Positions 1 through 16,479 of a stretch of DNA of 32,558 nt are shown piece after piece. The stretch lies in IMG/VR virus record IMGVR_UViG_2695420817_000008. One strand, given 5' to 3'. The notes under the pieces were generated by a model. The model was not told where the DNA came from. It did no database searches and was given only the letters and a program-made list of their open reading frames with translations. Numbering within the stretch: the first letter of the stretch is position 1; each line of letters begins with the position of its first letter. Source of the DNA: a virus. Its lineage: Duplodnaviria; Heunggongvirae; Uroviricota; Caudoviricetes. A program made the translations under genes and the position numbers.

Positions 1-201
1 AGGGAAGGCGTAAATTTCTTTCGTCCACGGATTAAGGCCGTACTGGTTGGCGACGATCAACAATGCGATGAACTGCGCATCGCTGGCATCACCTTTAAAT
101 GCCGTCTGGCGAAGAGTGGTGATCAGTTCCTGTGGGTCGACAGAATCCATGCCGACACGTTCAGCCAGCTTCCCAGCCAGCGTTGCGAGTGCTGTACTCA
201 T
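1..201 (-). CDS. bet: Bet (Red-beta) single-strand annealing recombinase, N-terminal 67 codons; gene continues past the window start
   Basis: Reverse-strand translation from the ATG at 199-201 reads MSTALATLAGKLAERVGMDSVDPQELITTLRQTAFKGDASDAQFIALLIVANQYGLNPWTKEIYAF, matching the lambda Bet N-terminus as recalled. Confidence 0.9.
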   Translation of the reverse strand, partial: MSTALATLAGKLAERVGMDSVDPQELITTLRQTAFKGDASDAQFIALLIVANQYGLNPWTKEIYAFP

Positions 202-206
202 CCGTT

Positions 207-503
207 TTATACCTCTGAATCAATATCAACCTGATGGTGAGCAATGGTTTCAACCATGTACCGGATGTGTTCTGCCATGCGCTCCTGAAACTCAACATCG
301 TCATCAAATGCACGGGTAATGGCTTTTTTGCTGGCCCCGTGGCGTTGCAAATGATCGATGCAGAGTGATTCAAACAGGTGCTGTGGAAGACCTTTTTCCA
401 TGTCGTCTGCCAGTTCTGCCTCTTTCTCTTCACGGGCAATCTGCTGGTAGTGACGCGCCCAGCTCTGAGCCTCAAGACGATCCTGAATGTAATAAGCGTT
501 CAT
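207..503 (-). CDS. gam: Gam host-nuclease (RecBCD) inhibitor, 98-aa short form
   Basis: Protein [39 protein letters not shown]...[10 protein letters not shown] matches lambda Gam from its internal Met onward. The upstream in-frame sequence hits a stop at 558-560 with no start codon, so only the short form is encoded. Confidence 0.9.
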
Positions 504-578
504 GGCTGAACTCCTGAAAATGGCTGTGAAAATATCGCCCGCGAAATGCCAGGCTGATTAGGAAAACAGGAAAGGGGA

Positions 579-989
579 TTAGTGATTCAGGCCGTTGCCT
601 CGTCCGTCGAGAAAAACTTCCACGAGCAAATCACGGGTATAAGTGCGCTCGATGCCGCGATGCAGATATAGCCGTCCGCGTAAATTAGCTGATGCTGTCC
701 AGGTACCATCTTTGTGTTTGACCAGCATTCCTGGCATGACCGCACCGCGATTAACGGTCTGCGTTCCGTAATGTTGATGAACCATAAAAACTCCTGCCCG
801 TAAGCTGGGCTGCTGAACATATAAAGACTTCTGCGCGTATTCAGGCGGTGGATGGCCGCCGGTTGTCATAACTAAGCCGCCTCGTTGAAGCGACTGAGGT
901 ATGAAATGTTGAGTTAATTTCAGCTGGTCACACCGACGTTCACGCGTCCGCTTCACCCCTCGCACTTCCCGGAGCCTGCTGAAATTCAA
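579..989 (-). CDS. hypothetical early-left protein (136 aa), first ORF downstream of the putative pL, in the N/kil position; function unknown
   Basis: Longest ORF between gam and the OL-like region, with an Arg-rich N-terminus. An alternative 77-aa ORF (587..820) in another frame overlaps it. No family recognised. Confidence 0.3.
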   Translation of the reverse strand: MNFSRLREVRGVKRTRERRCDQLKLTQHFIPQSLQRGGLVMTTGGHPPPEYAQKSLYVQQPSLRAGVFMVHQHYGTQTVNRGAVMPGMLVKHKDGTWTASANLRGRLYLHRGIERTYTRDLLVEVFLDGRGNGLNH

Positions 990-1059
990 GCTACGGATCT
1001 AAGCGGTCATCGCAACGGTGAATCAGGTGGTTGCCGTATCGTTGTGTTGTTGCGATATG

Positions 1060-1115
1060 ATGATAATAGCTATTGCTATTGGTGATATCAATACTTATTG
1101 CTATTGACTGATGTG
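1060..1115. promoter_or_regulatory. putative OL/pL operator-promoter region
   Basis: Two copies of TATTGCTATTG (1071..1082 and 1097..1108) in an AT-rich intergenic stretch; the same TTGCTATT motif recurs between the cI-like and cro-like genes. Confidence 0.4.
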
Positions 1116-1264
1116 TTTTGATATTAAATGTTTGATAGCAAAAAGAATTAATTTTGTGACTTGCATCGCATAGCGATAACTGAAGCAGGGGCATGGTGGT
1201 TTTTTGAACGGTGTGTGATGAGGGGAGGCAAAAGAAAACCCGGCACGACGGCCGGGGAGGGGGG

Positions 1265-1771
1265 TCATTTTAATCTATCAAGGAGTGGCTCTCTTTCCTT
1301 CTTCTCTGATTCTCTTCGGTTTAATAACGCTTTAAACTCTTGAAGCTCAACCATTATTTTATGAACGAATACACTGGTATAGAGAGAAATAAAGAGTAAT
1401 CCACCTGAAATTTTTAAGACCCTGAAGAGTAGGGCTTGATCATTTGTGCTTGCTATTAACCCCAAGATTACAAACAAAGTTGAAAATACATAGAAAGCTA
1501 ATAATAAAACCAATTTCAGTCTCTTGGATTTGACTATTGGCACTAATCGCCTAACCTCACTAGGGGTTAAAGACGAGTGGTCATTGGCCTCATTTGCCTT
1601 AAAAATGGCTTGTATACAATATGATAATGGCAATTGCATGAGTCCAACCACAGCCCACGGAGCTGTTAGGACAACACCCGGTGTAATATAGCCCAATGCT
1701 GACTTGAACAAAAAGTAACCAGCAACATAGAAGACCAACATACCAATAAGGTGGATGATGTTCGATTTCAT
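1265..1771 (-). CDS. small integral membrane protein (168 aa, four predicted TM helices); RexB-like or SieB-like exclusion candidate
   Basis: Hydrophobic segments IIHLIGMLVFYVAGYFLF, VVLTAPWAVVGLMQLPLSY, LKLVLLLAFYVFSTLFVILGLIA and GGLLFISLYTSVFV, with a charged C-terminal tail. AT-rich and co-oriented with the cI-like gene. Confidence 0.6.
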   Translation of the reverse strand: MKSNIIHLIGMLVFYVAGYFLFKSALGYITPGVVLTAPWAVVGLMQLPLSYCIQAIFKANEANDHSSLTPSEVRRLVPIVKSKRLKLVLLLAFYVFSTLFVILGLIASTNDQALLFRVLKISGGLLFISLYTSVFVHKIMVELQEFKALLNRRESEKKEREPLLDRLK

Positions 1772-1792
1772 TATCGCCCTCCTTTTGGTAGG

Positions 1793-2815
1793 TTATTTTG
1801 CAACCAATTCTCCGGCATCAAGTTTTGAGAACAGCCACTTATGCATTTTTAAGAATAAATCATTTTCATCAATAATGCCATTGTTATGTTCAACGCTAAT
1901 TTTTCCGGATAATTTTATCTCTTTTCCCGTTATTTCCCCACCGCCTTGAAGTTTGATGCTAATATCATCCTCATCTAGATGTCGTAGTGAGGTAGCAATA
2001 CTGTCTATAACAGCTTGACCGCTATCATTTGTTTTTCTGAAGTATGTAATCTCGAGGCTTACTTGTAAATTGGCCTCATCTAATGAATCTTTAATGTTTA
2101 TATCATTTGCCCAGTTATCGCCAAAAAATGCTTTTAGTAGCGCACCTCCTTTCCCTATTGGGCGGTATTTTATTGTCTTCACCGAACCATTTGAAAAGGA
2201 GGGTGTTTGGTTCTCTGAATTTTTAACTTCTGAAGTAATGGGTAATCCACCAATTTTTATGCTCTTGGCTGGTGCTTTCTCCATTTTTTTCATCGTTTCT
2301 TCGGATGGCTTATCTTGAAGCATTAACACAGATTCTTTTTCATCTGTGAATGTATTAATTAGCCAATTCAAATGCGCCTCAAGCTCCCTTGCTCGAAGCG
2401 ATGTGGATTGAACGATCATGACATGGTTGTTTAGTACACCAAAATATAAAATTGAATCTACAAACTCTCTTTTTTTGTCACTACGTTTATCTCCATCAAT
2501 AATTATATCATTAGACGTGATGGAGTTAATGTCATAAAATTTAACATTATCACTAAGCTCTAATAGAGACTGGCTTTTGTCTTTTTCAAATAAAACCAGT
2601 TGCCCAAAAAGTATAGTTTTGTATGTGTCGCTTTTATTTAAGAAACGATACCCCGAATTTTCATCTGAAGGTGTTATTTTTTCTTGTCTACTAAGTACTT
2701 TTTCTGCAACGCCGCCCTCACCTATAATACTAAGTAGTATGTTTTGTAATGATGATTTGCTGTGTGGGATTACTGCTTTTTTATAATGAACGACTTTTTG
2801 TCTGTTATCTTTCAT
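1793..2815 (-). CDS. hypothetical soluble protein (340 aa), RexA-position partner of the membrane protein; no recognisable catalytic motif
   Basis: Long AT-rich ORF immediately downstream of the cI-like gene on the same strand, 21 nt upstream of the membrane-protein gene. No Walker or nuclease motif seen. Confidence 0.6.
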   Translation of the reverse strand: MKDNRQKVVHYKKAVIPHSKSSLQNILLSIIGEGGVAEKVLSRQEKITPSDENSGYRFLNKSDTYKTILFGQLVLFEKDKSQSLLELSDNVKFYDINSITSNDIIIDGDKRSDKKREFVDSILYFGVLNNHVMIVQSTSLRARELEAHLNWLINTFTDEKESVLMLQDKPSEETMKKMEKAPAKSIKIGGLPITSEVKNSENQTPSFSNGSVKTIKYRPIGKGGALLKAFFGDNWANDINIKDSLDEANLQVSLEITYFRKTNDSGQAVIDSIATSLRHLDEDDISIKLQGGGEITGKEIKLSGKISVEHNNGIIDENDLFLKMHKWLFSKLDAGELVAK

Positions 2816-2873
2816 TGCTATAGTCCAACTAGTATTGAATAAATAAACACAGTAAAGACATAAAAATTTCTTA

Positions 2874-2901
2874 TAGCTACCGATAACGTAATCGGTAGCT
2901 A
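2874..2901. promoter_or_regulatory. perfect 11-bp inverted repeat (TAGCTACCGAT / ATCGGTAGCTA, 6-nt spacer) between cI-like stop and the RexA-position gene; hairpin terminator/attenuator or operator
   Basis: Read directly from the sequence; on the minus strand it is followed by a T-rich run. Confidence 0.4.
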
Positions 2902-2937
2902 TTACAAATCAACCAAAGGTAATTCTTTACATACTAC

Positions 2938-3630
2938 CTACCCATGCTTCCTGTAGGTCTGCGGCATGCTCCCAATAACTTTCCCGAAGATAAACACCCG
3001 GTTCATCTCGTCTTTCTCGATAGGATCCCACGGTGAGTAGCTCTTGTTATCAGAGATAACCAGCAGTTTATCCTTCATCATTTGCAGGCGCTTTACATGG
3101 GCGGTGTCGTCGTACAGAAATGCATAGATACCATCACCGTCGAAAGATTTAACCGTGATATCAACGAACAGCAGATCACCTGGTTCGATCGTTCCTGACA
3201 TGCTGTCACCACGCACGTTAATGATGCGGATATTTTCTGCCTTCCTGCCATCGAACATGTGACGAGCATCGTCAAACGAGTACTCAACCGAGCGTAGAAC
3301 TTCTACAAACTCACGGTTGATGACTCCCGGCCCGGCACTGACTTCTATATCAAGAACGTCAATTTTGAAGTATTTGGAATGGCTGACAGCAGGCTTCCCT
3401 GATTGTTGACCGTCATTTCTCATCGGGCCTATGCCTGATGAGAGCCATTCTGTTCGAACACCCAATGCATTAGCTATTTCAACAATTTTTGTTGAGCCGC
3501 GCGCGTTGCCGCTTGTCAGTCTCCAGATTGTGGGTTGAGCTACGCCAGACGCCTTTGCAAGAGCGCCTTGAGACATTCCAGATTGTTCCATCGCTAGGTT
3601 TAAGCGATCAGCAAGAGTTTCTTTTTTCAT
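2938..3630 (-). CDS. CI-like prophage repressor (N-terminal HTH, C-terminal LexA-like S24 peptidase domain)
   Basis: HTH segment QGALAKASGVAQPTIWRL, Ser nucleophile in VRGDSMSG and Lys in HVKRL. Start taken as the ATG at 3628-3630 (MKKETLADRL); the ORF is open to a TTG at 3666. Divergent from the cro-like gene. Confidence 0.8.
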   Translation of the reverse strand: MKKETLADRLNLAMEQSGMSQGALAKASGVAQPTIWRLTSGNARGSTKIVEIANALGVRTEWLSSGIGPMRNDGQQSGKPAVSHSKYFKIDVLDIEVSAGPGVINREFVEVLRSVEYSFDDARHMFDGRKAENIRIINVRGDSMSGTIEPGDLLFVDITVKSFDGDGIYAFLYDDTAHVKRLQMMKDKLLVISDNKSYSPWDPIEKDEMNRVFIFGKVIGSMPQTYRKHG

Positions 3631-3666
3631 AAGTTTTAATTTATACGCTTGCGTATTGATGGTCAA

Positions 3667-3740
3667 AACACGTTTTGCTATTGCTTGGATTAATACTCAT
3701 TGCTATTATTCATTCATTGCAATACCAATAGGAATTGATA
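3667..3740. promoter_or_regulatory. putative OR operator region (pR / pRM) between divergent cI-like and cro-like genes
   Basis: Repeated TTGCTATTG / TTGCTATTA / TTGCAATAC half-site-like motifs in a 70-bp divergent intergenic region. Confidence 0.5.
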
Positions 3741-3968
3741 ATGACAAATCAAACCATTCAACTCGCAATCAGTATTACAGGTAGTCAAAAGCGACTGGCA
3801 GATCTATGCGGTGTAGCCCAGCCCACTGTTTGGCGTTGGCTACACGGTGGCGGAATTGATGCCCGCTATGTAATGAAAATTGTCTCAGCCACTGGTGGAA
3901 AGATTAAACCAGCAGATATTCGTCCCGACCTCGCACCATTGTTTAACGCGAGTAATTCTGCCGCCTAA
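3741..3968 (+). CDS. Cro-like HTH regulator (YdaS family)
   Basis: 75-aa protein with HTH segment GSQKRLADLCGVAQPTVWRW, divergently transcribed from the repressor gene. Confidence 0.75.
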   Translation: MTNQTIQLAISITGSQKRLADLCGVAQPTVWRWLHGGGIDARYVMKIVSATGGKIKPADIRPDLAPLFNASNSAA

Positions 3969-3992
3969 TCTGCGGCGTTAACTGATAAGGCA

Positions 3993-4538
3993 ATGACTAT
4001 GCAACCACTTACATACCAACAGACTAGCGGATTTAGCCCGACTGCGGTGATAAATCGTTCTCAAACAAAACAAGCTCCAGGCCACGAAAAAATCCGTGAT
4101 GCCGTCCGCGCCTGGTCGGCTGCAGATAATCAGGATGTTGTTGCCGCACTCATTGTGAATGAGTATCGGGAGCAGGGCGGCGGCACCATCGATTTCCCTG
4201 ATGATGTCAGCCGTGCACGCCAGAAGCTGTTCCGCTTCCTCGATAACAAATTCGATTCTGAAAAATACCGAAATAACGTGCGTGAACTGACCCCGGCAAT
4301 TCTGGCGGTACTACCGCTGGAATATCGCGGCCACCTGGTTGAGCAGGATAGCTTCATGGCTCGGCTGGCTGAAATGGAAAAGGAACTCAGTGAGGCAAAA
4401 CAGGCTGTCATTCTCAACGCACCACGCCACCAGAAACTGAAGGAGATGAGTGAAGGCATTGTGTCGATGTTTCGTGTGGACCCGGATCTGGCTGGTCCAC
4501 TGATGGCGATGGTCACCACCATGCTGGGGGCAATATGA
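3993..4538 (+). CDS. YdaT-like protein (Rac prophage ydaT family) in the cII position
   Basis: Segments NEYREQGGGTIDFPDD and LTPAILAVLPLEYRGHL resemble Rac YdaT as recalled; lies between cro-like and O. Confidence 0.6.
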   Translation: MTMQPLTYQQTSGFSPTAVINRSQTKQAPGHEKIRDAVRAWSAADNQDVVAALIVNEYREQGGGTIDFPDDVSRARQKLFRFLDNKFDSEKYRNNVRELTPAILAVLPLEYRGHLVEQDSFMARLAEMEKELSEAKQAVILNAPRHQKLKEMSEGIVSMFRVDPDLAGPLMAMVTTMLGAI

Positions 4539-4624
4539 CAGGTTCGGAAATGGCGAAAGCCGGTCTGCGCGAACAGAACCGACTTTCAGGTGCAAATCGT
4601 AACACACTCATTGCGGGAGGAATT

Positions 4625-5554
4625 ATGGCAAACACTGCTGAGATATTCAATTTTCCAGTGCCGGATGCGGCACAAAAGGAGCCGCGCGTGGCAGATCTCG
4701 ATGATGGTTATACGCGCATTGCAAATGAGTTGCTGGAAGCTGTGATGCTGGCCGGATTAACACAGCACCAGCTTCTGGTCTTTCTGGCTGTCATGCGCAA
4801 AACATATGGCTTTAATAAAAAACTGGATTGGGTTAGCAACGAGCAACTTTCCGAATTAACCGGGATATTGCCGCACAAGTGTTCTGCTGCAAAAAGTGTT
4901 CTGGTAAAGCGTGGGATTCTTATTCAGAGCGGGCGGAATATCGGCATCAATAATGTGGTCAGTGAATGGTCAACATTACCCGAATCAGGTAAGAAAAATA
5001 AAGTTTACCTGAAAGAGGTAAATTTACCTGAATCAGGTAAGAAAAGTTTACCCAAATCAGGTAAAGGCACTTACCCGAATCAGGTAAACACAAAAGACAA
5101 ACTAACAAAAGACAATATAAAACCTTTTTCGTCCGAGAATTCTGACGAATCCTCTGACCAGCCAGAAAATGCCCTTCCTGTGGTGAAACCGGATGCTGCG
5201 ATTCAGAGCGGCAGCAAGTGGGGGACAGCAGAAGACCTGACTGCCGCAGAGTGGATGTTTGACATGGTGAAGACCATCGCGCCATCAGCCAGAAAACCGA
5301 ATTTTGCAGGGTGGGCTAACGATATCCGCCTGATGCGTGAACGTGACGGACGTAACCACCGCGACATGTGCGTGCTGTTCCGCTGGGCCTGCCAGGACAA
5401 CTTCTGGTCCGGTAACGTGCTGAGTCCGGCCAAACTACGCGACAAGTGGACCCAGCTCGAAATCAACCGTAACAAGCAACAGGCTGGCGTGACAGCCGGA
5501 AAACCAAAACTCGACCTGACGAACACTGACTGGATTTACGGGGTGGAGCTATGA
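4625..5554 (+). CDS. O: replication initiator O (divergent iteron-binding N-terminal half, lambda-like C-terminal half)
   Basis: GGAGG RBS before the ATG at 4625. N-terminus MANTAEIFNFPVPD...VADLDDGYTRIANELLEA resembles lambda O; C-terminus DMCVLFRWACQDNFWSGNVLSPAKLRDKWTQLEINRNKQQAGV...DWIYGVEL matches lambda O as recalled. Confidence 0.9.
   Translation: MANTAEIFNFPVPDAAQKEPRVADLDDGYTRIANELLEAVMLAGLTQHQLLVFLAVMRKTYGFNKKLDWVSNEQLSELTGILPHKCSAAKSVLVKRGILIQSGRNIGINNVVSEWSTLPESGKKNKVYLKEVNLPESGKKSLPKSGKGTYPNQVNTKDKLTKDNIKPFSSENSDESSDQPENALPVVKPDAAIQSGSKWGTAEDLTAAEWMFDMVKTIAPSARKPNFAGWANDIRLMRERDGRNHRDMCVLFRWACQDNFWSGNVLSPAKLRDKWTQLEINRNKQQAGVTAGKPKLDLTNTDWIYGVEL
4976..5130. repeat. phage origin of replication inside O: four 18-bp iterons (TTACC[C/T][G/A]AATCAGGTAA[G/A]) at 24-bp spacing plus one degenerate copy, followed by an A/T-rich segment
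   Basis: Iterons at 4976..4993, 5024..5041, 5048..5065 and 5071..5088; degenerate copy near 5004..5021. Each is an imperfect palindrome (TACC...GGTA). A-rich stretch follows at 5089..5130. Confidence 0.85.
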
Positions 5555-6261
5555 AAAACATCGCCGCACAGATGGTTAATTTTGACCGTGAGCAGATGCG
5601 CCGGATCGCCAATAACATGCCGGAACAGTACGACGAAAAGCCGCAGGTACAGCAGGTAGCGCAGATTATCAATGGTGTGTTCAGCCAGTTACTGGCAACT
5701 TTCCCGGCGAGCCTGGCTAACCGGGACCAGAATGAACTGAACGAAATCCGCCGCCAGTGGGTTCTGGCTTTCCGGGAAAATGGGATCACCACGATGGAAC
5801 AGGTTAACGCTGGAATGCGCGTAGCCCGTCGGCAGAATCGACCATTCCTGCCATCACCCGGGCAGTTTGTCGCCTGGTGCCGGGAAGAAGCATCCGTTAA
5901 CGCCGGGCTGCCAAACGTCAGCGAGCTGGTTGATATGGTCTATGAGTATTGTCGGAAGCGTGGCCTGTATCCAGATGCAGAGTCTTATCCATGGAAATCA
6001 AACGCGCACTACTGGCTGGTTACCAACCTGTACCAGAACATGCGGGCCAATGCGTTGACTGACGCGGAATTACGGCGCATGGCTGCCGATGAACTGTCCT
6101 GTATGACCGCGCGAATTAACCGTGGTGAAGCGATCCCTGAACCGGTGAAACAACTTCCTGTCATGGGCGGCAGGCCGCTTAATCGTGTTCAGAGCTTGGA
6201 AAAAATTAAACAATTGCGTGCTAAACATGGATTATGTAGAGGGAAAAGGTTTAGTGGATGA
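5551..6261 (+). CDS. P: replication protein P (DnaB helicase loader)
   Basis: MKNIAAQMVNFDREQMRRIANNMPEQYDEKPQVQQVAQIINGVF... matches lambda P as recalled for most of its length; the last ~25 residues diverge. ATGA overlap with the O stop. Confidence 0.92.
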   Translation: MKNIAAQMVNFDREQMRRIANNMPEQYDEKPQVQQVAQIINGVFSQLLATFPASLANRDQNELNEIRRQWVLAFRENGITTMEQVNAGMRVARRQNRPFLPSPGQFVAWCREEASVNAGLPNVSELVDMVYEYCRKRGLYPDAESYPWKSNAHYWLVTNLYQNMRANALTDAELRRMAADELSCMTARINRGEAIPEPVKQLPVMGGRPLNRVQSLEKIKQLRAKHGLCRGKRFSG

Positions 6262-6384
6262 AAGTAATGAGGTGATTTCCTTCTCTCCCACACTTCAAAA
6301 GATAGAGTTTATTATTTGAATTTACTATAATTTACTGATAAAACAAAAGAATTGTAGAGCAATTTTCATTTGAGGATGAAGTAA

Positions 6385-8031
6385 ATGTGTGAAACCTATA
6401 TTTTTAGGTTCCGTGACCTAGGAAAAAGTGAAGGATTTACCATCGAGCAACACAATAACATTGCTCGCCAAGAAGGGAATGTTTGGTGGGGGTGGTGGGC
6501 TAAATCTGGTGAGCGTTTCCCATCACTGGAACTAAAAAATGCGGCAGAAAAAAATAAACAAATATATTTTTTTGATTCAGGGCGGCTTAAATTTTATACC
6601 GCTGTATTAAAGGATACCTGCTCGTCAGCTTTAGGGGATATAAAAAAGCAATCTCCTAAGGATGGTCGCAGAACCCCAGCATATTATAATGAGAATGAGT
6701 TGCTGGGATGGTTAAATGTTTCTGAGATTATAGAAATTGATGCTTGTGATATCCTCAAAAAATTCACATATATTCCATTGGATGCATTGTTTGCAGGTAA
6801 TAAAGATTTAGATGAGCAACTTTTCAACAAAATTGTCTTTTCTTCAGCTGAATTAAAAAAACAAGATAGAACTATTTGGAAGATTAGACCTGCAAATGAT
6901 AAAGATTTACAGCATGAGTCATTAGCATCTCATTATGTTCCTTATAATTTCAGTCGGAAGTATAGCCAAAAAAAAGGGGAGTTTATAATTTGGCTTTCGG
7001 ATATTCATTTTGATGGCGGAAATGGGAAACATGCATTTCCGACACAAGATAATGATCAGCTAAAATGTTTATCCTCTCGAGTGGTGGAGTTGGCTGGAAA
7101 ATATAATAATGGGAGTAAATGTGCTGGGTTGGCTATTTCAGGTGATTTGACGTGGCAGTCACAGAAAGAGGGATTCGAGCAAGCTTTGAATTTTATCAAA
7201 GATGTTAGTTCTTCTCTTAGTCTGACAACGGATGATATAATTATTTGTCCTGGGAATCACGATGTAGGTCTGGTTTCTAAAGATGAGTACTTTAAAATCG
7301 TTGGTAAGCCTGTAACGGATAAACCATGGAAAATTCTGGCGGAAAACTACCATAGCGAAAGTAAACTTAATTATATAAAATTTTATCGAGATTTTTTTCA
7401 AAGGGAACCTGAAGAAAATTTATCACAAGGAAGGAAATTTTTACTAGGTGGCCATAAAGTTGTTGAAATAGCCGCATTGAACTCATGCGTATTACAACAA
7501 GTAAAAGATTCATTTTTGGGCATGGGATTTGTCGGTGAGCAACAACTCAGTGATGTTGCAAAATCTATGGGATGGATGAATGATAGCGGAGGAGATATAC
7601 TCAAAAAGAAAGGTGTTATAAGAATTGCTATGCTTCACCATCACCTAACTTCTATTAATGAAGTTGAAGATGCCTATCTTGATTCAAGATATAGTGTAAC
7701 ATTAGATGCAGAGCGATTATTACGTTGGGTAGTAAGGCATAAAGTTGATTATATTCTGCATGGTCATATGCACAGAAGTAGTTTTATTACAATAACAAAA
7801 AAACTATCTCCGTTAGAACCAGTGACGGATTCAAATCCTGAACATACATTCCAAATTGTTTCTTTGGGAAGTTCAGGAGTTGTTAGTTCGGAATTGCCAA
7901 GTCAGGATTGTGCTAACTATGCATGCGTACTGGATTTTTCTGGCGAAAAGCTAACTTTTAATTTTTTCAAGCTTGATAAACAGAGCGGAGAAAAAGTGGC
8001 GGCTACTTATATTGTTGAAGGTTTATTATGA
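6385..8031 (+). CDS. calcineurin-like metallophosphoesterase (548 aa) with an unassigned ~200-aa N-terminal domain
   Basis: All five metallophosphoesterase motifs in order: LSDIHFDG (D-x-H), ISGDLTW (GD), CPGNHD (GNH[DE]), MLHHHL (H) and LHGHMHR (GH-x-H). N-terminal region contains GNVWWGWWAK. AT-rich codon usage; GAGGA RBS. Confidence 0.8.
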   Translation: MCETYIFRFRDLGKSEGFTIEQHNNIARQEGNVWWGWWAKSGERFPSLELKNAAEKNKQIYFFDSGRLKFYTAVLKDTCSSALGDIKKQSPKDGRRTPAYYNENELLGWLNVSEIIEIDACDILKKFTYIPLDALFAGNKDLDEQLFNKIVFSSAELKKQDRTIWKIRPANDKDLQHESLASHYVPYNFSRKYSQKKGEFIIWLSDIHFDGGNGKHAFPTQDNDQLKCLSSRVVELAGKYNNGSKCAGLAISGDLTWQSQKEGFEQALNFIKDVSSSLSLTTDDIIICPGNHDVGLVSKDEYFKIVGKPVTDKPWKILAENYHSESKLNYIKFYRDFFQREPEENLSQGRKFLLGGHKVVEIAALNSCVLQQVKDSFLGMGFVGEQQLSDVAKSMGWMNDSGGDILKKKGVIRIAMLHHHLTSINEVEDAYLDSRYSVTLDAERLLRWVVRHKVDYILHGHMHRSSFITITKKLSPLEPVTDSNPEHTFQIVSLGSSGVVSSELPSQDCANYACVLDFSGEKLTFNFFKLDKQSGEKVAATYIVEGLL

Positions 8032-8864
8032 AATTACTTATTACTGATTTGGATAATACACTGTACGATTGGGTGAGTTTTTACTCCCAGTCATTTAGTG
8101 CCATGGCAGAGCAATTATCTAAGGATATTGATGTGCCTTTGGATACGCTCCTGTCAGAATATAAAACAATTCATCAGAAGTTTGGTAACTCAGAAAAACC
8201 ATTTGCTACTTTAGAGCTACCATCTGTGATATCTTACTTTGGAACTAATGATAAAACGATTTTGCAGGAAAAACTTACTAATGTTTTTCAGGCGTTTAGC
8301 ACAAAACGTAACCAGACATTAATGTTGTATCCTACTGTAAAAGAAACGCTGGAATTATTGAAGAAACGGGGGGTAAAAATTGTAGGGCATACTGAAGCTT
8401 TGGAGTTTAATTCTTTATATCGTCTGAATAAGCTTGGTATAATTGATTTTTTTGATCATCTTTATACATTAGAAGATATTCATAATATCCACCCGAATCC
8501 CAAAAATGCAAAAAAAATACCTGTGAAGGATGACTTTGTAATTAGATTGTCCTGCGCTGAGTCAAAGCCAAACCCTAAATTGCTTGAGCACATATGTTCT
8601 TTTGAAGGAGTTAGTGTTGAAGATGCGGTATACATTGGCGATTCTATAACTAAAGATATGTCCATGGCTAAAGCTGTGGGGGTTACTGCTGTTTGGGCTA
8701 ATTATGGGCGACAGTTTTCACCTGAATTGTGGAAAGTTTTAGTGAAAATCACACACTGGAAAGATGCAGATGTGGAGAGGGAGGAACAACTTAGAAAAGC
8801 ATTCTCCAATGTTAGACCTGATTATGTTGTTAATAGTTTTTCAGAGCTGCTGAATTTGAAATGA
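8028..8864 (+). CDS. HAD-superfamily phosphatase (278 aa), translationally coupled to the phosphoesterase gene
   Basis: HAD motif I LITDLDNTLYDW (DxD), a conserved Lys in ESKPNPK and motif IV YIGDSITKD. Its ATG overlaps the upstream TGA (ATGA). Confidence 0.8.
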   Translation: MKLLITDLDNTLYDWVSFYSQSFSAMAEQLSKDIDVPLDTLLSEYKTIHQKFGNSEKPFATLELPSVISYFGTNDKTILQEKLTNVFQAFSTKRNQTLMLYPTVKETLELLKKRGVKIVGHTEALEFNSLYRLNKLGIIDFFDHLYTLEDIHNIHPNPKNAKKIPVKDDFVIRLSCAESKPNPKLLEHICSFEGVSVEDAVYIGDSITKDMSMAKAVGVTAVWANYGRQFSPELWKVLVKITHWKDADVEREEQLRKAFSNVRPDYVVNSFSELLNLK

Positions 8865-8875
8865 GCATGTGCAGG

Positions 8876-8906
8876 CTCCAAATTTTTAATGATTTGGAGT
8901 TCTTTA
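8876..8906 (+). terminator. putative intrinsic terminator after the HAD gene
   Basis: Perfect 8-bp inverted repeat CTCCAAAT / ATTTGGAG with an 8-nt loop, followed by a T-rich stretch. Confidence 0.4.
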
Positions 8907-9455
8907 TGGGGTTATTTTTTAATTTGGTGATTTTTCCCAATATTGAGATGTTGTTGAACTCGTGAGTTATATTTAACGTATTTGATGTTAATGAAATAAT
9001 AATATCACAATGCAAGCTCCCTGCATTTTCTTGTAGGGGGCATGCTATTTAGAATAAGCTTATGGTCAAGATTAAATTATGAACTGCTATTTTGATGGGC
9101 TGTTTATTATATTGGGGTTGTTTTCTTTTTGAGTTTTTATGGTTGAGATGAACGTTTGTTAAATGTTTTAACACCCTTTGTTACAACATTCATCATTTTT
9201 ACTGTTTGCTAACATAATGTTAGACTGAAATTATTAATTTGTGAAACTAATCATCTAATTTAACAATACAAAATTGAGATCCAATAATCAAAATGCCATA
9301 ATAATGTCATCGGAGCCTGAACAACTCCGGTGACTTCTGCGCTAAACGGGGACGTTTATGCGCACATACAATCCAAACTCTCTTCTCCATTCACAGATGC
9401 AGAAATGCACCTGCGTTTTTTTGCATCCAGCGTCTGACCTCTGTGGAGGTGAAGC

Positions 9456-9911
9456 GTGAACCTACCACAAGATGGCATCAAACTGCATCGCGGTAACTTC
9501 ACCGCTATCGGTCAGCAGATCCAGCCTTATCTGGAGGACGGCAAATGCTTTCGCATGGTGCTTAAACCGTGGCGTGAGAAACGCAGTCTTTCCCAGAATG
9601 CACTCAGCCACATGTGGTACAGCGAAATCAGTGAATACCTCATCAGCAGGGGTAAAACGTTCGCCACTCCAGCTTGGGTAAAAGATGCTCTCAAACACAC
9701 ATATCTCGGTTATGAAACCAAAGACCTGGTTGATGTCGTAACCGGTGATATCACCACTATCCAGTCGTTACGCCATACCTCCGATCTTGATACCGGAGAG
9801 ATGTATGTCTTCCTGTGTAAGGTTGAAGCCTGGGCGATGAATATTGGCTGCCACCTGACTATTCCGCAGAGCTGCGAGTTCCAGCAGCTCCGCGACAAAC
9901 AGGAGGCGTAA
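9456..9911 (+). CDS. ybcN: YbcN-like protein (DLP12 ybcN homolog)
   Basis: GTG start after a [27 protein letters not shown]...[20 protein letters not shown]... matches E. coli DLP12 YbcN as recalled. Confidence 0.85.
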
Positions 9912-10081
9912 TGGCTACACCGCTTATTCGTGTCATGAACGGGCACATTTACAGAGTACCAAATCGTCGTAAGCGTAAACCTGAGCTGAAGCCTTCCGAA
10001 ATACCAACACTGCTCGGATATACCGCCAGCCTGGTTGATAAAAAATGGTTGCGACTGGCAGCAAGGAGGAATCATGGCTGA
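9911..10081 (+). CDS. ninE: NinE-like small protein (56 aa)
   Basis: [56 protein letters not shown]. Start overlaps the ybcN stop; not in the supplied ORF track because it is under 60 aa. Confidence 0.65.
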
Positions 10082-10556
10082 TTTGAGAAAAGCAGCGCGT
10101 GGTCGGGAATGCCAGGTAAGAATCCCTGGCGTATGTAATGGCAACCCTGAAACGTCTGTACTGGCACATATCCGGCTGGCTGGATTGTGCGGCACCGGTA
10201 TTAAACCGCCAGACCTTATTGCCACCATTGCCTGTTCTGCCTGTCACGACGAAATCGACCGCCGCACGCACATCAGCGCAGAAGGGCAGGTATACCGTGA
10301 TAACGTCGCCCGAATCATTAAAGGCTCAATGCTGGATATCGGTCTGGCTATGCCTGTGAAAATCCGCATTGAGTGCCACATGCCGGATCGCCGTCGCCGT
10401 GACCTGGATAATCTGCAAAAAGCCGCTTTTGACGCACTCACTAAAGCAGGTTTCTGGCTGGATGATGCTCAGGTCGTTGATTACCGCGTTGTGAAGATGC
10501 CTGTTACCAAAGGTGGGAGGCTGGAACTGACCATCACTGAACTGGGGAATGAATGA
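10074..10556 (+). CDS. rusA: in-frame YbcO (DUF1364) N-terminal part fused to RusA Holliday-junction resolvase C-terminal part (160 aa chimera)
   Basis: After an AAGGAGG RBS: [66 protein letters not shown] (YbcO-like) runs directly into [94 protein letters not shown] (RusA residues ~27-120 as recalled). Confidence 0.7.
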
Positions 10557-10693
10557 TGTTTGAGTCTTATATGGCAGAGCGTCTTCGCCGCCGCTGGGTG
10601 CGCCTGCGCTTATATCGTTTTCCTGGTTCTGTTTTGACCGATTACCGGATACTGAAGAATTACGCCAAAACACTGAAAGGAGCTGCCGCATGA
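10553..10693 (+). CDS. ylcG: YlcG-like small protein (46 aa)
   Basis: [46 protein letters not shown]; ATGA overlaps with both the rusA stop and the Q start. Confidence 0.65.
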
Positions 10694-11379
10694 ATACCCA
10701 ATATTTACAGTATGTCCGCGAGCAACTCATTGTGGCTACCGCTGATTTGAGCGGAGCAACGAAAGGACAGCTTGAAGCCTGGCTGGAGCATGCACAATTT
10801 GATACTGGTAAATACAAACGAAAGAAGCTGCGCATTCTGGATGAGGTAACTGGCAGGATGATTACGCTGGATAATCCGCCGATTTCCGGTAAGCAGTCGT
10901 ACGCAAAAGGTTCATCCATTGCACTGGTAAGCCAGGTTGAGTTCTCAACCTCGTCATGGCGCCGCGCGGTTCTGTCTCTCGAAGAACATCAGAAAGCGTG
11001 GTTGCTGTGGAGTTACAGCGAAAGTGTTCGCTGGGAACATCAGGTCACCATAACGCAGTGGGCATGGAGCGAGTTTAAGACTCTGTTGGGTACCAGAAAA
11101 ATTGCAGGTAAGACACTGGAACGTTTGAAGAAGTTGATCTGGCTGGCGGCACAGGATGTGAAGAACGAGCTGGCAGGGCGTAAGACCTATGAATACCAGG
11201 AGCTGGCATCACTGGTGGGAGTGACATCAAAAAACTGGTCTGAGACATTTACTGAACGCTGGGTTGCAATGAAGCACATTTTTCTACAGCTTGATAGCGA
11301 AGCTTTATTGCTTGTAACGAGAACACGTTCAAAACAAAAGACGACATTTTCACAGCAAAGTATTGCAAAACTGGATTGA
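10690..11379 (+). CDS. late-gene antiterminator Q-like protein (229 aa)
   Basis: Called by position: last gene of the nin region, directly upstream of a pR'-like promoter and a 6S-RNA-like leader. It is not lambda Q by sequence. Confidence 0.55.
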   Translation: MNTQYLQYVREQLIVATADLSGATKGQLEAWLEHAQFDTGKYKRKKLRILDEVTGRMITLDNPPISGKQSYAKGSSIALVSQVEFSTSSWRRAVLSLEEHQKAWLLWSYSESVRWEHQVTITQWAWSEFKTLLGTRKIAGKTLERLKKLIWLAAQDVKNELAGRKTYEYQELASLVGVTSKNWSETFTERWVAMKHIFLQLDSEALLLVTRTRSKQKTTFSQQSIAKLD

Positions 11380-11452
11380 AAGGCATATATTCCGTGTAAA
11401 TCTGATATTTTGCCAATGTTGTATGTGCAACTGTTCGTAGGTGTCGTAAGGG

Positions 11453-11481
11453 TTGACTATCCAATTTCCAGGATATAGATT
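11453..11481 (+). promoter_or_regulatory. late promoter pR'-like (TTGACT, 17-bp spacer, TAGATT) with a lambda-like leader downstream
   Basis: Sigma-70 hexamers read directly. The downstream leader (CCGCCAAGTTGGTAACTTCGAC...GGGACTCCAACC...GAGAGGTC) resembles the lambda pR'/qut leader as recalled. Confidence 0.6.
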
Positions 11482-11600
11482 TTTCTGCAATAAAGGTTTT
11501 GGGAATGAAGGGGCGGCTCCCAAAAGATAACCGCCAAGTTGGTAACTTCGACTCGATAATTGGTCTGGGACTCCAACCGTGTCGGCTGAGAGGTCGACGT

Positions 11601-12404
11601 CTATTTCTTTTGGGGAAGTGGATACTTTAAGCTAACATTTTGAGTTTCTATATCTCGTGGCCCTCGAGTTTTATCATAAAAATACCAGATATTAAATTTT
11701 CTCTCAGTGTGCCATGTATCATATTGCAAATGATCCCAGCCTAAATATGAAGCAACATAGTTTGATACTCTTATTTTGGCTTCAGATGAAGCTTTTCCTT
11801 GATATGCGCACATAACCGCACCTAAGAAAAAATCGGCTAGCTGAATGTTTTCAGATGCTTTAGAGTCTTTTGTCACTACACTGCTGATTATCCCTTTACG
11901 ACCAAATTTTCTATTCAATATGTTATTGGCAATAACATTTAGTTCTTCATCGGCCTTTTTATAACGAGATGCGATAGGATCAACTTCAATCCTGAAGTAA
12001 CTGTCTCTTTCAGGGTGTGCAGAAATTACAGAGCTAATTTTTGTGGTAATGAGATTTGTGAAGTGCTTTCTCCTTGCCAGGTCATAATCCCCATTATGAA
12101 ATGTCTTGTTTACTATTGATTTTTCAACCACGATACAATGAAAAGCTAGCCAAGGAACTCTAAAGAATAAGTCGATCAGCTCAAGATAAAATTCAGAGTA
12201 TCTTTTTGAATGGGCTTTTTGCCATTTTATTTCTTCAAAAAAACCATGTTTGCTACGTAGTTCTCTGATTAGTTGACAGAAATCCCCACGGCGTTGGTAC
12301 TTCATCCACAGACTGCCAAAGCCGTAGAAACGTTGCCCATCAATGCCAGATTCATCGCAAGCAATATGCCAAATTAACTTACCAATGTTATCTTTTTCTG
12401 TCAT
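11601..12404 (-). CDS. hypothetical accessory protein (267 aa), possibly DUF3800-like; moron between Q and lysis genes
   Basis: AT-rich ORF antisense to late transcription, with N-terminal HIACDESG and C-terminal QLADFFLGAV motifs. Family assignment is from memory and tentative. Confidence 0.6.
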   Translation of the reverse strand: MTEKDNIGKLIWHIACDESGIDGQRFYGFGSLWMKYQRRGDFCQLIRELRSKHGFFEEIKWQKAHSKRYSEFYLELIDLFFRVPWLAFHCIVVEKSIVNKTFHNGDYDLARRKHFTNLITTKISSVISAHPERDSYFRIEVDPIASRYKKADEELNVIANNILNRKFGRKGIISSVVTKDSKASENIQLADFFLGAVMCAYQGKASSEAKIRVSNYVASYLGWDHLQYDTWHTERKFNIWYFYDKTRGPRDIETQNVSLKYPLPQKK

Positions 12405-12632
12405 CTGCTGGTAATGCTCTTAGTCCTTAAAGCATGGTATTTAACCACACATGTAACTCATTGATAAAGATCGTTTTATGCAAGTTGCATGGATCGGCTT
12501 TTGAAGGCCATTCGCTTAGTTATAAGATTTTTTAGTTATTTTGAGTTGACTGTTTATAACAATATTTCCCATGTAAGTTTTTAATCATTAGCGTCCCGGC
12601 CTTTCGTCGGCGGCGAAACATTGGCTATTCAT

Positions 12633-12938
12633 ATGCACGAAAAAGAGAGCCTTGCCGGAGCGTTCTGGCTCGTTTTGCTGATCATCGCAGGTTGGGGCGG
12701 TCTGGTCCGCTATCTGATAGATGTGAAGCAAAGTAAAGCAACGTGGAGCTGGATAAATGCTCTGGCTCAGATAGTGGTATCGGGATTCACCGGTGTTATT
12801 GGTGGCCTGATCAGTATCGAAAGTGGATTCAGTATTTACATGATTCTCGCGACAGCGGGGATTAGTGGTGCGATGGGCTCGGTTGCACTGACGTACTTCT
12901 GGGAACGACTGACAGGGGTGAAAAATGCAAAATCTTAA
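12633..12938 (+). CDS. holin (three predicted TM helices)
   Basis: Hydrophobic segments AFWLVLLIIAGWGGLV, ALAQIVVSGFTGVIGGLISI and IYMILATAGISGAMGSVALTYFW with a charged C-terminus. Overlaps the R start as S does in lambda. The ORF is open from a TTG at 12621; not lambda S by sequence. Confidence 0.6.
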   Translation: MHEKESLAGAFWLVLLIIAGWGGLVRYLIDVKQSKATWSWINALAQIVVSGFTGVIGGLISIESGFSIYMILATAGISGAMGSVALTYFWERLTGVKNAKS

Positions 12939-13401
12939 TCCTCAGCGTAAAGCTTTCCTCGATATGTTGGCGTGGTCAGAAGGAACGGATAACGTGCGAC
13001 AACCGACACGTAACCGCGGTTATGACGTTATTGTCGGTGGCGAACTCTTCACTGATTACTCCGATCACCCTCGAAAACTTGTCACGCTAAACCCGAAACT
13101 CAAATCAACAGCCGCAGGCCGTTATCAACTTCTTTCACGCTGGTGGGATGCTTACCGCAAGCAGTTAGGGCTGACAGACTTCTCTCCTAAAAGCCAGGAT
13201 GCTGTTGCATTGCAGCAGATTAAGGAGCGTGGTGCTTTACTAATGATTGATCGCGGTGACATCCGTCAGGCAATCGACTGTTGCAGCAATATCTGGGCTT
13301 CGTTACCCGGAGCAGGTTACGGTCAGTATGAACATAAAATCGGTGACCTGATTTCCCGATTTAAAGAGGCTGGTGGGGTGGTAAATGAAGTTGAGCTATA
13401 A
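12925..13401 (+). CDS. R: endolysin R (lambda-type lytic transglycosylase)
   Basis: NPQRKAFLDMLAWSEGTDN...GYDVIVGGELFTDYSDHPRKLVTLNPKLKST...RYQLLSRWWDAYRKQLGL matches lambda R as recalled. Confidence 0.92.
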   Translation: MQNLNPQRKAFLDMLAWSEGTDNVRQPTRNRGYDVIVGGELFTDYSDHPRKLVTLNPKLKSTAAGRYQLLSRWWDAYRKQLGLTDFSPKSQDAVALQQIKERGALLMIDRGDIRQAIDCCSNIWASLPGAGYGQYEHKIGDLISRFKEAGGVVNEVEL

Positions 13402-13777
13402 GCTGGTTATCGCTGCTTTTCTCGTTACTGTCATCGGTTCTTTCATCTGGTCTGCCAACCACTACTACAGCAAATATCAGCACGAAAAGAAACGTGCTGA
13501 TGAGGCTGTACAAAATGCCAAATCGGCAACTGTCATTACCAATAACGTCCTGCAATCACTGCAAATCGTCAATACAGTTCTGGAGGCTAGCCAGCATGCA
13601 AAACAGCAGATTGCACTGGAGTCACAGAGAACCCAGACAGATATCAAAACGGCTGTTGCGAATGATGATTGCGCTGCCCGTCCTGTTCCTGCTCGTGCAG
13701 CTGAACGGCTGCGCCGGTACGCGGACAGTTTACGTACCAGTTCCAGCGGTACCGCTACCGGCGAATCTGACCACTGA
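13385..13777 (+). CDS. i-spanin (Rz-like), N-terminal TM anchor plus coiled-coil region
   Basis: MKLSYKLVIAAFLVTVIGSFIWSANHYYSKYQHEKKRADEAV...; positioned after R with its start overlapping the R 3' end. Confidence 0.6.
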   Translation: MKLSYKLVIAAFLVTVIGSFIWSANHYYSKYQHEKKRADEAVQNAKSATVITNNVLQSLQIVNTVLEASQHAKQQIALESQRTQTDIKTAVANDDCAARPVPARAAERLRRYADSLRTSSSGTATGESDH

Positions 13778-13919
13778 GACCCCACAACCAGTTATTCCTG
13801 ATCCGCTGACCTATGGGGGCAGTCTGGATTTGAATGTCAGTCTGCTTTCCGCGCTGGCGACCTGTAACCGAGATAAAGCTGATATTCGAAAAATTGAAGC
13901 AGAGAGGATCAAGCTATGA
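13662..13919 (+). CDS. o-spanin (Rz1-like lipoprotein) in overlapped architecture
   Basis: +1-frame ORF starting inside Rz: MMIALPVLFLLVQLNGC (signal peptide with lipobox-like LNGC) then a Pro-rich region VPVPAVPLPANLTTETPQPVIPDP; extends 142 nt past the Rz stop. Confidence 0.55.
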   Translation: MMIALPVLFLLVQLNGCAGTRTVYVPVPAVPLPANLTTETPQPVIPDPLTYGGSLDLNVSLLSALATCNRDKADIRKIEAERIKL

Positions 13920-14237
13920 AGCAGTAAAGCGGACGGACCGTGGCAAGTGGCGCCAATGCAGCAGTCATGATGCTGCCCCGAATACCCAAAGTTGCGGGTA
14001 GCCAGTCTCAGGTAAAAAGCTGAGGGCGTACTGGTGAGGGGTAACGGGAAGAAGCGCACCGGTACTCCAGGCTGGTCGCCAGTCAGCTTCCGGTTAGTGG
14101 TGAGGGATTCACGAGATACCCCTGACACATGGCCTCAAGGGAATGAGCGCAGCTACTGCGAGAGTGTGGTTGGCATTCACTTAGTGCTTGCGATAATGCT
14201 TTTAGTTACAATCACTTCATCGATAAATGAGGTGAAG

Positions 14238-14777
14238 ATGAACGCAGATTATATAGCTTACGAATCATTGGTTGCCACTAGAAATACAGCAGAATGGGCT
14301 TTTTGGTCAATGGTAGGAACGTGGTTTTCAGGCATTGCAACCTTTATGGCAGTATGCCTGACTTTATATATTTCTAACCGTCGACCTCGACCGAAGTTAA
14401 GAGGAACAGTATCGCTTGGGGGCATCACAGGCCAAAATGTGAGCACGTTTGGAGTTACGATCAACATTGCAAATGTTGGCATTCAAACCGCAACTATAAC
14501 TTCAGTAACATGGACGTTCGGTACAAAAAACTCACTACTTCAGATTCTGGGGGGTGGGTTTGGTGACGATTTACCAAAAAAAATTGAGCATGGCGAATAT
14601 GCATTTTTCTTTATTCAAAATGATACTAATGGCGACTGGGCCAGAGATATGAAAAATAAGATATGGGAACAGGGCGGCAACGTTCGCAAATTAATGTTGC
14701 TTGTGCACCTTGCTACCGGCGATACGATGAAAATTAAGCCAGCCAAAAATGTAATAAAAATGATCGAAAAATCATAA
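14238..14777 (+). CDS. hypothetical membrane-anchored protein (179 aa, one N-terminal TM helix)
   Basis: GAGG RBS then ATG. TM segment WAFWSMVGTWFSGIATFMAVCLTLYI followed by a Gly/Thr-rich domain. AT-rich, lying between the spanin genes and cos. The ORF is open from a GTG at 14034 but the upstream part has different composition. Confidence 0.55.
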   Translation: MNADYIAYESLVATRNTAEWAFWSMVGTWFSGIATFMAVCLTLYISNRRPRPKLRGTVSLGGITGQNVSTFGVTINIANVGIQTATITSVTWTFGTKNSLLQILGGGFGDDLPKKIEHGEYAFFFIQNDTNGDWARDMKNKIWEQGGNVRKLMLLVHLATGDTMKIKPAKNVIKMIEKS

Positions 14778-14884
14778 CATCCACAGGTGCATCACCATAG
14801 ACAGCCTCCATTCTAATCTCACCATCACAGGATCTCGTAGAGTGTCTGTGATGGTGCTATATCCTGTAAAGTAAAGGGAGACCA

Positions 14885-15172
14885 ATGATGACATCTTTAA
14901 CCGTTGCGGTATTAGCTTTAATAGTTGCAATCTGGCATGAGATAAACCGATTTCCAGCAACCGGGAAGAGCTTACTGTCTTTACAGCAAGAAGTTAGGGA
15001 GCTGAGGGATGAAAATGAAAGATTAGCCTCTGAAGTAGATTCTTTAAAGGATGAGTTACTTGAAATTTCAAATCAGATAGATCGAATTAAAGACCCTGAA
15101 TATTATGCATTGCTTGATGCAGGAGATGGAGTGGGTCTTTATGAAATAGAAAAGTCAAGAGGTCAAATTTAA
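14885..15172 (+). CDS. hypothetical small membrane-anchored coiled-coil protein (95 aa)
   Basis: AGGGAG RBS; N-terminal TM segment LTVAVLALIVAIW; heptad-like charged region LQQEVRELRDENERLASEVDSLKDELLEISNQIDRIK; terminator immediately downstream. Confidence 0.55.
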   Translation: MMTSLTVAVLALIVAIWHEINRFPATGKSLLSLQQEVRELRDENERLASEVDSLKDELLEISNQIDRIKDPEYYALLDAGDGVGLYEIEKSRGQI

Positions 15173-15173
15173 T

Positions 15174-15199
15174 AACCGCCTTTTTGGCGGTTTATTATT
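15174..15199 (+). terminator. intrinsic terminator (AACCGCC-TTTTT-GGCGGTT followed by TATTATT)
   Basis: Stem-loop and T-rich tail read directly after the 95-aa ORF stop. Confidence 0.6.
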
Positions 15200-15236
15200 C
15201 CGTCATCATGGGCAGGCCCATCGTAACTGCAGTATC

Positions 15237-15563
15237 TTATATACACCAATGACATCTCTGGATGGTTGGCAGTCCTGTTAGTTGGCCTGCGGTGGACTCG
15301 GCCTCGTCAAGCGTAAGAACACATACTTTTTGGTATCGGCCAGTAGTAAAGCCGGCGTGATTTTTTGGGCTGATTAACGGGTTGATTGATTTGCATGAGG
15401 CTCGATGAATCCGCGTAAATCTGGCATCATTTTTTCTGCCTTTCCCGCTGGCCGACTTAAGCAGATTAATAACGAATCCATCGGAATGGGTTGCTAGCCA
15501 ACTCTTGTACATCGCTTCGCTATCAACATCCTGTATTTCACTGCTGAAAATAGTAATGCCCAT
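15237..15563 (-). CDS. hypothetical protein (108 aa)
   Basis: Only sizeable ORF between the terminator and cos. Cys residues in ASCKS, KVCVL and RCHWCI; no family recognised. Confidence 0.35.
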   Translation of the reverse strand: MGITIFSSEIQDVDSEAMYKSWLATHSDGFVINLLKSASGKGRKNDARFTRIHRASCKSINPLISPKNHAGFTTGRYQKVCVLTLDEAESTAGQLTGLPTIQRCHWCI

Positions 15564-15671
15564 ATTTTTTCCGTATATGACTAACTGATATGAATATGTA
15601 TCAGGACTATTTTATGGCAAAACCAGAGTAGAAGGCCATTGGGGTCCGGAGTGTTGATGTGAACAAATTAA

Positions 15672-15682
15672 CCCCCCCCCCC
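15672..15682. repeat. C11 homopolymeric tract
   Basis: Eleven consecutive C residues, about 110 bp upstream of the minus-strand 108-aa ORF start and about 65 bp before cosN. Confidence 0.9.
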
Positions 15683-15699
15683 TTTAAGTGTAATTGATA

Positions 15700-16453: not shown

Positions 16454-16479
<26 letters not shown>
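15934..16479 (+). CDS. nu1: terminase small subunit Nu1
   Basis: MEVNKKQLADIFGASIRTIQNWQEQGMPVLRGGGKGNEVLYDSAAVIKWYAERDAEIENEKLRREVEEL... matches lambda Nu1 as recalled. Confidence 0.95.

Follow-up and report, generated by a model that had tools for sequence, protein, structure and literature searches.

Two overlapping plus-strand genes, flanked by replication gene P and ybcN in a Caudoviricetes sequence, IMG/VR record IMGVR_UViG_2695420817_000008, very probably constitute a type I Metis system (MisA-MisB) carried by a prophage; this system has also been published as DS-9. The whole 32,558-nucleotide (nt) stretch is referred to here as the window. The operon comprises misA (6385..8031, 548 amino acids (aa)) and misB (8028..8864, 278 aa, a HAD-family phosphatase), and it belongs to a system that is named, validated and mechanistically described. 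It is already known, as RefSeq annotation recognises Metis: in NZ_OZ547246.1 the two genes are called misA ('anti-phage phosphoesterase') and misB, with a MisB identical to that of the window and a MisA that differs by one substitution (D143N). An earlier interpretation made from the letters of the window (the sequence-only reading) had proposed the block as a candidate defence or counter-defence module with a novel, unnamed gene pairing, and had named close homology of both proteins to a characterised system as the observation that would speak against novelty. Such homology is what we found. The proposal of a defence module stands, in that the operon is a close homologue of the tested anti-phage DS-9/Metis systems, while the claim of novelty does not.

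MisA passes the NCBIfam equivalog NF053862.1 (DS9_1_antiphage, anti-phage phosphoesterase) with 530.3 bits against a cutoff of 420, and its residues 8-508 align to positions 1-484 of the 486 in the model. It is 80% identical to DS-9A (WP_000665639.1) over 548 aa, with one gap of a single residue. The N-terminal domain, which the sequence-only reading had described as a domain of unknown function, is the Pua-like domain of Pfam PF24405 (E 3.7e-43; residues 5-178, nt 6397-6918); the sequence GNVWWGWWAK begins at residue 31, with W35-G36-W37-W38 as its core. The calcineurin-like metallophosphatase domain (PF00149) occupies residues 201-464 (nt 6985-7776) and contains the complete set of metal-binding motifs that had been predicted, all five of which could be located (D206-x-H208, G253-D254, G290-N-H-D293, H418-H419 and G460-H-x-H463). 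Both domains are present in 87 of 89 MisA homologues. The DS8_antiphage model (NF053861.1) matched MisA with 52.7 bits against a cutoff of 790 (E 1.5e-14), and this match covers residues 204-472, that is, the phosphatase domain only.

Conservation was assessed in an alignment of 44 MisA sequences with identities down to 27%, including the tested DS-9 allele. The metal ligands D206, H208, D254, N291, H292, H418/H419, H461 and H463 are invariant in this alignment, and so are the sensor residues H23, W35-G36-W37-W38, E43, P98, Y100, Y101, W109, Q160, R162, T163 and W165. Residues D207 and N292 of DS-9A correspond to D206 and N291 of the window MisA, with an offset of one residue, and both are present. 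The catalytic mutants D207A and N292A of DS-9A abolish defence (PMC13092281, supplement), so that the metal-ligand mutants proposed by the sequence-only reading had already been made in the 80% identical allele. The dN/dS values relative to the DS-9 allele are 0.15 for misA and 0.06 for misB, indicating strong purifying selection on both genes.

The AlphaFold2 (AF2) models of MisA are confident, with a predicted local distance difference test (pLDDT) score of 87.6 over the full-length protein and of 89.7 over residues 1-190. The catalytic domain has YydD, Rv0805, SMPDL3A/B and GpdQ as fold neighbours, and the nearest solved folds of the sensor domain are the YTH readers of N6-methyladenine (m6A), followed by McrB-N with 5-methylcytosine (m5C) DNA, the EVE domain of THYN1, and ASCH. 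The YTH-like fold of the modeled sensor fits an N6-methyladenine ligand, although it is no proof of one.

The second gene shares a 4-nt ATGA stop/start overlap (8028-8031) with misA on the same strand, and misB is predicted from this arrangement to be translationally coupled to misA. MisB matches Pfam HAD_2/Hydrolase, and the PADLOC model PDLC03008 'Hydrolase' over its full length (E 4e-57), and it is 78% identical to DS-9B (WP_000770925.1), also over the full length. Its HAD motifs are D7-x-D9, T122, K180 and G204-D205, in agreement with the HAD phosphatase suggested earlier, and D7, D9, T122, K180, D205 and D210 are invariant among the MisA-linked HAD partners.

The pairing itself is conserved, as the co-occurrence check suggested with the sequence-only reading brought out. 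A genome-contig scan with the single MisA protein returned two loci, both 80% alleles, and is insensitive for a survey of pairing; contigs encoding distant MisA homologues were therefore read instead. A HAD gene of 277-282 aa follows misA within 10 nt in four of four distant homologues (33-61% identity), which come from Shewanella, Myxococcaceae, Bradyrhizobium and Klebsiella and often have TIR, SIR2 or OLD+UvrD genes nearby. The same pairing was found in an 82% variant and on plasmids.

DS-9 was described in the DefensePredictor study (Science 2026, PMC13092281) as a two-gene system of a metallophosphatase and a HAD phosphatase that protected E. coli MG1655. According to the supplement of that study, the tested clone (MHAD/DS-9) consists of WP_000665639.1 and WP_000770925.1, and we located both proteins in a chromosomal island of E. 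coli H15 (NZ_CP010178.1). In the segment read from this record (numbered 1..13505), a TIGR02391 protein, a restriction endonuclease and a 1,040-aa hypothetical protein are found upstream of DS-9, and Hachiman HamA and its helicase are found downstream. In the DefensePredictor screen, a defensive role was predicted for MisA alone (log-odds 4.5) while MisB scored -1.10, and the supplement flags the DS-9 MisB as a homologue of Rst_Hydrolase-Tm__Hydrolase (PMC13092281). The negative score of MisB agrees with the later finding that this protein is a safety component and not the effector.

That finding comes from Osterman et al., who gave Metis its name (bioRxiv 10.1101/2025.11.05.686725) and reported that three E. 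coli MisA-MisB operons (401675, 402837 and E308) confer abortive-infection protection against T2, T4, T5, T6 and T7. Nicotinamide adenine dinucleotide (NAD+) was depleted upon infection of Metis cells, T4 and T6 escapers carried denA mutations, and host dam was needed for defence. Purified MisA from E. coli 402837 converted NAD+ to nicotinamide mononucleotide (NMN) and adenosine monophosphate (AMP) with N6-methyl-dAMP (m6dAMP) only, and not with dAMP, m6AMP, m6dA or m6-adenine, and m6dAMP in the medium arrested Metis-carrying cells. MisA on its own defended and was mildly toxic, and MisB, which converts m6dAMP to m6dA and in this way clears the basal signal, was dispensable for defence. The same preprint defines type II Metis as MisB together with MisC, an effector with three transmembrane segments (three-TM), and a putative type III that adds the methylase MisD. 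The sequence-only reading had envisaged that a phosphodiesterase and a phosphatase, one after the other, could take nucleotides or nucleotide second messengers down to nucleosides. The two enzymes do act on nucleotides; the serial scheme is not the reported one, in which MisA is an NAD+ diphosphatase activated by m6dAMP and MisB clears this ligand (bioRxiv 10.1101/2025.11.05.686725).

Applied to the window operon, this scheme would run as follows. The adenines of chromosomal GATC sites would be methylated by host Dam, and a lytic phage such as T2, T4, T5, T6 or T7 would degrade the chromosome to mononucleotides, so that m6dAMP would accumulate and bind the N-terminal PUA-like/YTH-like pocket of MisA. 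In the ligand-bound protein, the C-terminal dimetal phosphatase domain would be switched on and would split NAD+ at its pyrophosphate bond into NMN and AMP, and the collapse of NAD+ would abort the infection. In the uninfected cell, MisB, as a Mg2+-dependent HAD phosphatase, would turn trace m6dAMP derived from repair into inert m6dA and thereby keep MisA off. Observed for the window operon itself were its place in the family, the intactness of its motifs, the conservation of the pairing, the fold of the sensor and purifying selection, and by analogy we infer that its allele behaves like the tested ones. Three points weigh against this assignment. The tested DS-9 allele is 80% identical to that of the window, which makes the function one assigned by homology; the mechanism rests on one preprint (bioRxiv 10.1101/2025.11.05.686725); and expression in the lysogen would depend on a candidate promoter, a conserved and consensus-like one.

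The operon resembles type I Metis/DS-9 in its two overlapping genes, encoding a PUA-like plus calcineurin-like metallophosphatase protein and then a HAD phosphatase, and in having all the catalytic and conserved sensor residues. It differs from the tested DS-9 in its location, as the latter is part of a chromosomal defence island, with Hachiman next to it, whereas the window copy lies in a lambdoid prophage and replaces ren, and in a non-coding tail of about 370-400 bp and 29% GC that is present only in the window allele. Type II Metis (MisC-MisB), which corresponds to the DefenseFinder system Rst_Hydrolase-Tm / Hydrolase-3Tm found in phage-satellite hotspots, has the HAD phosphatase MisB and the reported m6dAMP trigger in common with the window system; its effector, however, is a three-TM protein and a predicted pore, while that of the window is the soluble MisA, a reported NAD+ diphosphatase. 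No gene for a MisC-like three-TM effector was found in the insert, where it is misA that lies upstream of misB, and no DNA methyltransferase gene was found in the operon, with two genes only between P and ylcH/ybcN. With neither MisC nor a methylase in the insert, the system is of type I.

Other known proteins share single features with the operon. DS-8 (metallophosphatase-NACHT) has a homologous metallophosphatase domain, but it carries a NACHT module and has no PUA-like sensor or HAD partner, and the window MisA falls below the NF053861.1 cutoff. The YTH, EVE, ASCH and McrB-N readers are merely 10-16% identical in sequence to the MisA sensor, and they recognise modified bases that form part of an RNA or DNA polymer, whereas MisA reportedly reads a free mononucleotide and gates an enzyme allosterically. 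The SIR2, TIR and SEFIR effectors (Thoeris, DSR, CBASS, Pycsar and pAgo systems), like Metis, stop phage through NAD+ depletion at the cost of the infected cell. In contrast to MisA, which has another fold and cuts the pyrophosphate bond to give NMN and AMP, these effectors cut the nicotinamide-ribose bond to give ADP-ribose (ADPR) and nicotinamide.

The operon lies in an insert of low G+C content (GC). The GC fraction is 0.34-0.39 over 6200-9400 and 0.50-0.56 in the flanks (0.55 in gene P), with values of 0.361 for misA, 0.359 for misB, 0.292 for the tail (8865-9275) and 0.505 for the whole window. The AT-rich two-gene block between P and ybcN, with its two open reading frames (ORFs) and its drop in GC, had been recognised correctly by the sequence-only reading, but the extent of 6262-8906 was too small, as the insert in this lambdoid prophage reaches from ~6190 to ~9275. 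The left junction is at ~6188-6200, within the last ~60 bp of P, where other E. coli P genes lose their match, and the right junction is at ~9275-9285, where a backbone common to about 2,780 E. coli genomes resumes. The flanking genes are named replication protein P and ybcN in a 99.9% identical RefSeq locus, which belongs to a lambdoid prophage integrated beside icd.

At its C-terminus (window 6188..6261), the last ~20 codons of P read …LEKIKQLRAKHGLCRGKRFSG, compared with …LAKIAEIKAKFGLKGARV in some 3,200 P genes found elsewhere in E. coli, and ren, which normally overlaps the P stop codon, is absent from the slot. The altered end of P together with the absence of ren indicates that the cassette junction rewrote the P C-terminus. 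The interval from P to ybcN/ninB was also read in three further prophages whose P is related, and it contains ren, emrE, ylcJ and ybcK, a ren pseudogene with TagO and IS3, or ren alone. This variation bears out the description of the slot as a lambdoid accessory hotspot. A repeat search for transposon-like or terminal repeats flanking the cassette returned short chance pairs only, and the insert looks like the outcome of ordinary lambdoid mosaic recombination. At the megablast level, the operon had no match in 50,697 phage genomes, and an Rfam scan of 6000-9600 gave a sole sub-threshold chance match (mir-1271, 20.5 bits against 80.5).

The region from the left junction to misA (6190..6384, plus strand) contains the upstream regulatory signals. 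A GAGGA Shine-Dalgarno sequence at 6372-6376 lies 8 nt before the misA ATG, and the candidate promoter consists of a -35 TTGAAT at 6316-6321, a 17-nt spacer and an extended -10 TGnTAAAAC (TGATAAAAC) at 6336-6344; an alternative perfect TATAAT is present at 6326-6331. The bases are as the sequence-only reading gave them for a promoter of the operon's own, and they are conserved in the 80% DS-9 allele, where ATTTACTGATAAAAC is invariant and the -35 is kept as TTGAAT/TTGAGT, while homology between the two alleles wanes farther upstream of this block. A generic sigma-70 scan did not call the candidate, and promoter-like sites are no commoner than in shuffled sequence (11 found against 11.9 expected). 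The conservation between alleles of a consensus-like site supports the candidate promoter of misA.

A hairpin lies directly 3' of the misB stop codon (8873..8906, plus strand), with a folding energy of -15 to -17 kcal/mol and a z-score of -2.2 to -2.5. The hairpin terminator proposed earlier is real as a hairpin; as a terminator it has a modest z-score and a poor U-tract and was not called by the terminator scan. The DS-9 allele has a hairpin of another sequence at the equivalent place after misB (z -5.0), which indicates that the structure is conserved and the sequence is not. The element is probably a weak terminator or a 3'-end stabiliser.

The remainder of the insert (8907..9275) is the AT-rich non-coding tail, about 370-400 bp long with 29% GC and restricted to 12 complete E. 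coli genomes with the same misAB copy. It contains no ORF of at least 60 aa on the plus strand, no relatives in the phage collection (searched in distant mode) or the plasmid collection, and no Rfam family. A terminator-like hairpin (9016-9041) is seen in it, and promoter-like sites occur at 9260-9302. We considered the tail as a decayed copy of a 107-aa minus-strand gene that lies 3' of misB in the 82% variant, and rejected this on finding no tblastn or blastn similarity.

Among 5,426 complete E. coli genomes, 12 contain the window misAB copy and about 23 others the 80% allele. In public assemblies, 656 index blocks list exactly this MisA sequence, and the P-misA-misB-ybcN context was seen in all 26 contigs read for it. 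The same ~79% allele as in the E. coli H15 island is carried on 14 plasmids, 11 of them from Klebsiella and nine of the 14 conjugative.

This distribution bears on whether the cassette is a silent or decaying passenger, that is, acquired AT-rich DNA that is unexpressed or non-functional in the lysogen. Its GC of 0.36 in a window of 0.50, the lack of a statistically distinguishable promoter and the weak terminator would all suit a passenger, but both ORFs are intact with every catalytic residue present, the dN/dS values indicate strong purifying selection, the promoter-like block is conserved between alleles, and the exact protein recurs in its 656 blocks and in the same context in every contig read. 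We consider a passenger most unlikely. It is very unlikely, too, that the allele belongs to the family and has diverged in function so as to sense another modified nucleotide or hydrolyse another dinucleotide or nucleotide. The conserved sensor residues and all metal ligands are invariant across the 44 homologues, the tested allele among them, MisA scores above the equivalog cutoff, and a system with no linked methylase must depend on the Dam of its host, like type I. Such a divergence would nevertheless be compatible with the 80% identity to the tested allele, with the varied nucleotide substrates of the related metallophosphatases Rv0805, SMPDL3A and GpdQ, and with the expectation of the Metis authors that variants sensing other modified bases exist (bioRxiv 10.1101/2025.11.05.686725).

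The counter-defence role raised by the sequence-only reading found no support. In such a role, the pair would break down host immune messengers (cyclic oligonucleotides or cADPR isomers) to nucleosides in two steps, as might be suggested by its carriage on a prophage and by a metallophosphatase fold like those of the cyclic-nucleotide phosphodiesterase Rv0805 and of SMPDL3A. However, homologues expressed on their own protect cells against phages (PMC13092281; bioRxiv 10.1101/2025.11.05.686725), and MisA cleaves NAD+ while MisB acts on m6dAMP and not on the products of MisA (bioRxiv 10.1101/2025.11.05.686725). The pair is also found in chromosomal defence islands (with Hachiman, TIR, SIR2 or OLD/UvrD) and on conjugative plasmids, and the operon is unmatched at the megablast level in the 50,697 phage genomes. 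We regard the probability of a counter-defence function as close to nil, and the operon as very probably a type I Metis defence system.

In addition to misAB, the window contains two loci that look less well characterised. The first occupies the rexAB slot of lambda, where genes at 1265..1771 (minus strand, 168 aa) and 1793..2815 (minus strand, 340 aa) lie directly downstream of a cI-like repressor gene (2938..3666, minus strand). Their GC is 0.32-0.40, both are 'hypothetical' in RefSeq, and they belong to the PHROGs families phrog_3482 and phrog_16807 (function unknown). The pair had no match in Pfam, NCBIfam or PADLOC, and its accessions are absent from the DefensePredictor tables consulted. 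It is a candidate prophage exclusion or defence pair that may be more novel than misAB. The second locus encodes a 267-aa DUF3800 protein (11601..12404, minus strand; PF12686, E 1.3e-10; PADLOC candidate PDC-M04A, E 7.8e-35) in a patch of 0.35-0.38 GC just downstream of the gene for antiterminator Q (10690..11379), in the Q-to-lysis moron slot.

The prophage of NZ_OZ547246.1 is collinear with the window over 1-10,270 (99.7%) and 15,689-19,669 (97.7%) and diverges from it over ~10,700-15,700, the Q-to-lysis region, which is typical of lambdoid mosaicism. For the window, annotation of the ompC and iss morons seen in that prophage was considered and rejected by the collinearity check, as they are absent at the corresponding coordinates.

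The discovery value of the operon is slight, the system being already named and validated, although the YTH-likeness of the MisA sensor fits the proposed ligand. The pattern recognition of the sequence-only reading, which led from an AT-rich moron with a phosphoesterase, an extra domain and a HAD partner to defence, was sound even though its novelty claim was not. Beyond a plain copy of Metis, the allele could have a sensor that has drifted to another modified mononucleotide, or the tail and the early-right position could tie Metis expression to the lysis-lysogeny state; we hold this to be improbable. The slot lies just 3' of P in the pR early-right operon, and AT-rich inserts can be silenced by H-NS; the latter route might, for example, involve transcription reading through from pR once the prophage is induced, silencing by H-NS in the lysogenic state, or a regulatory RNA. 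If either were true, Metis would have a role in temperate-phage biology on which the published work is silent.

Temperate lambdoid phages leave the DNA of their host undegraded. Because the trigger of Metis is the breakdown of the host's genome, which lambdoid phages do not carry out, a lambdoid prophage could carry the system without harm to itself, and the lysogen would be protected against lytic phages. The common exact allele in the same prophage slot illustrates the spread of Metis as a lysogenic-conversion cassette that replaces ren. Prophages are not mentioned in the text of the Metis preprint (bioRxiv 10.1101/2025.11.05.686725), and the occurrence of Metis in a prophage adds modestly to what has been published. 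A temperate phage would be a logically safe carrier of the system.

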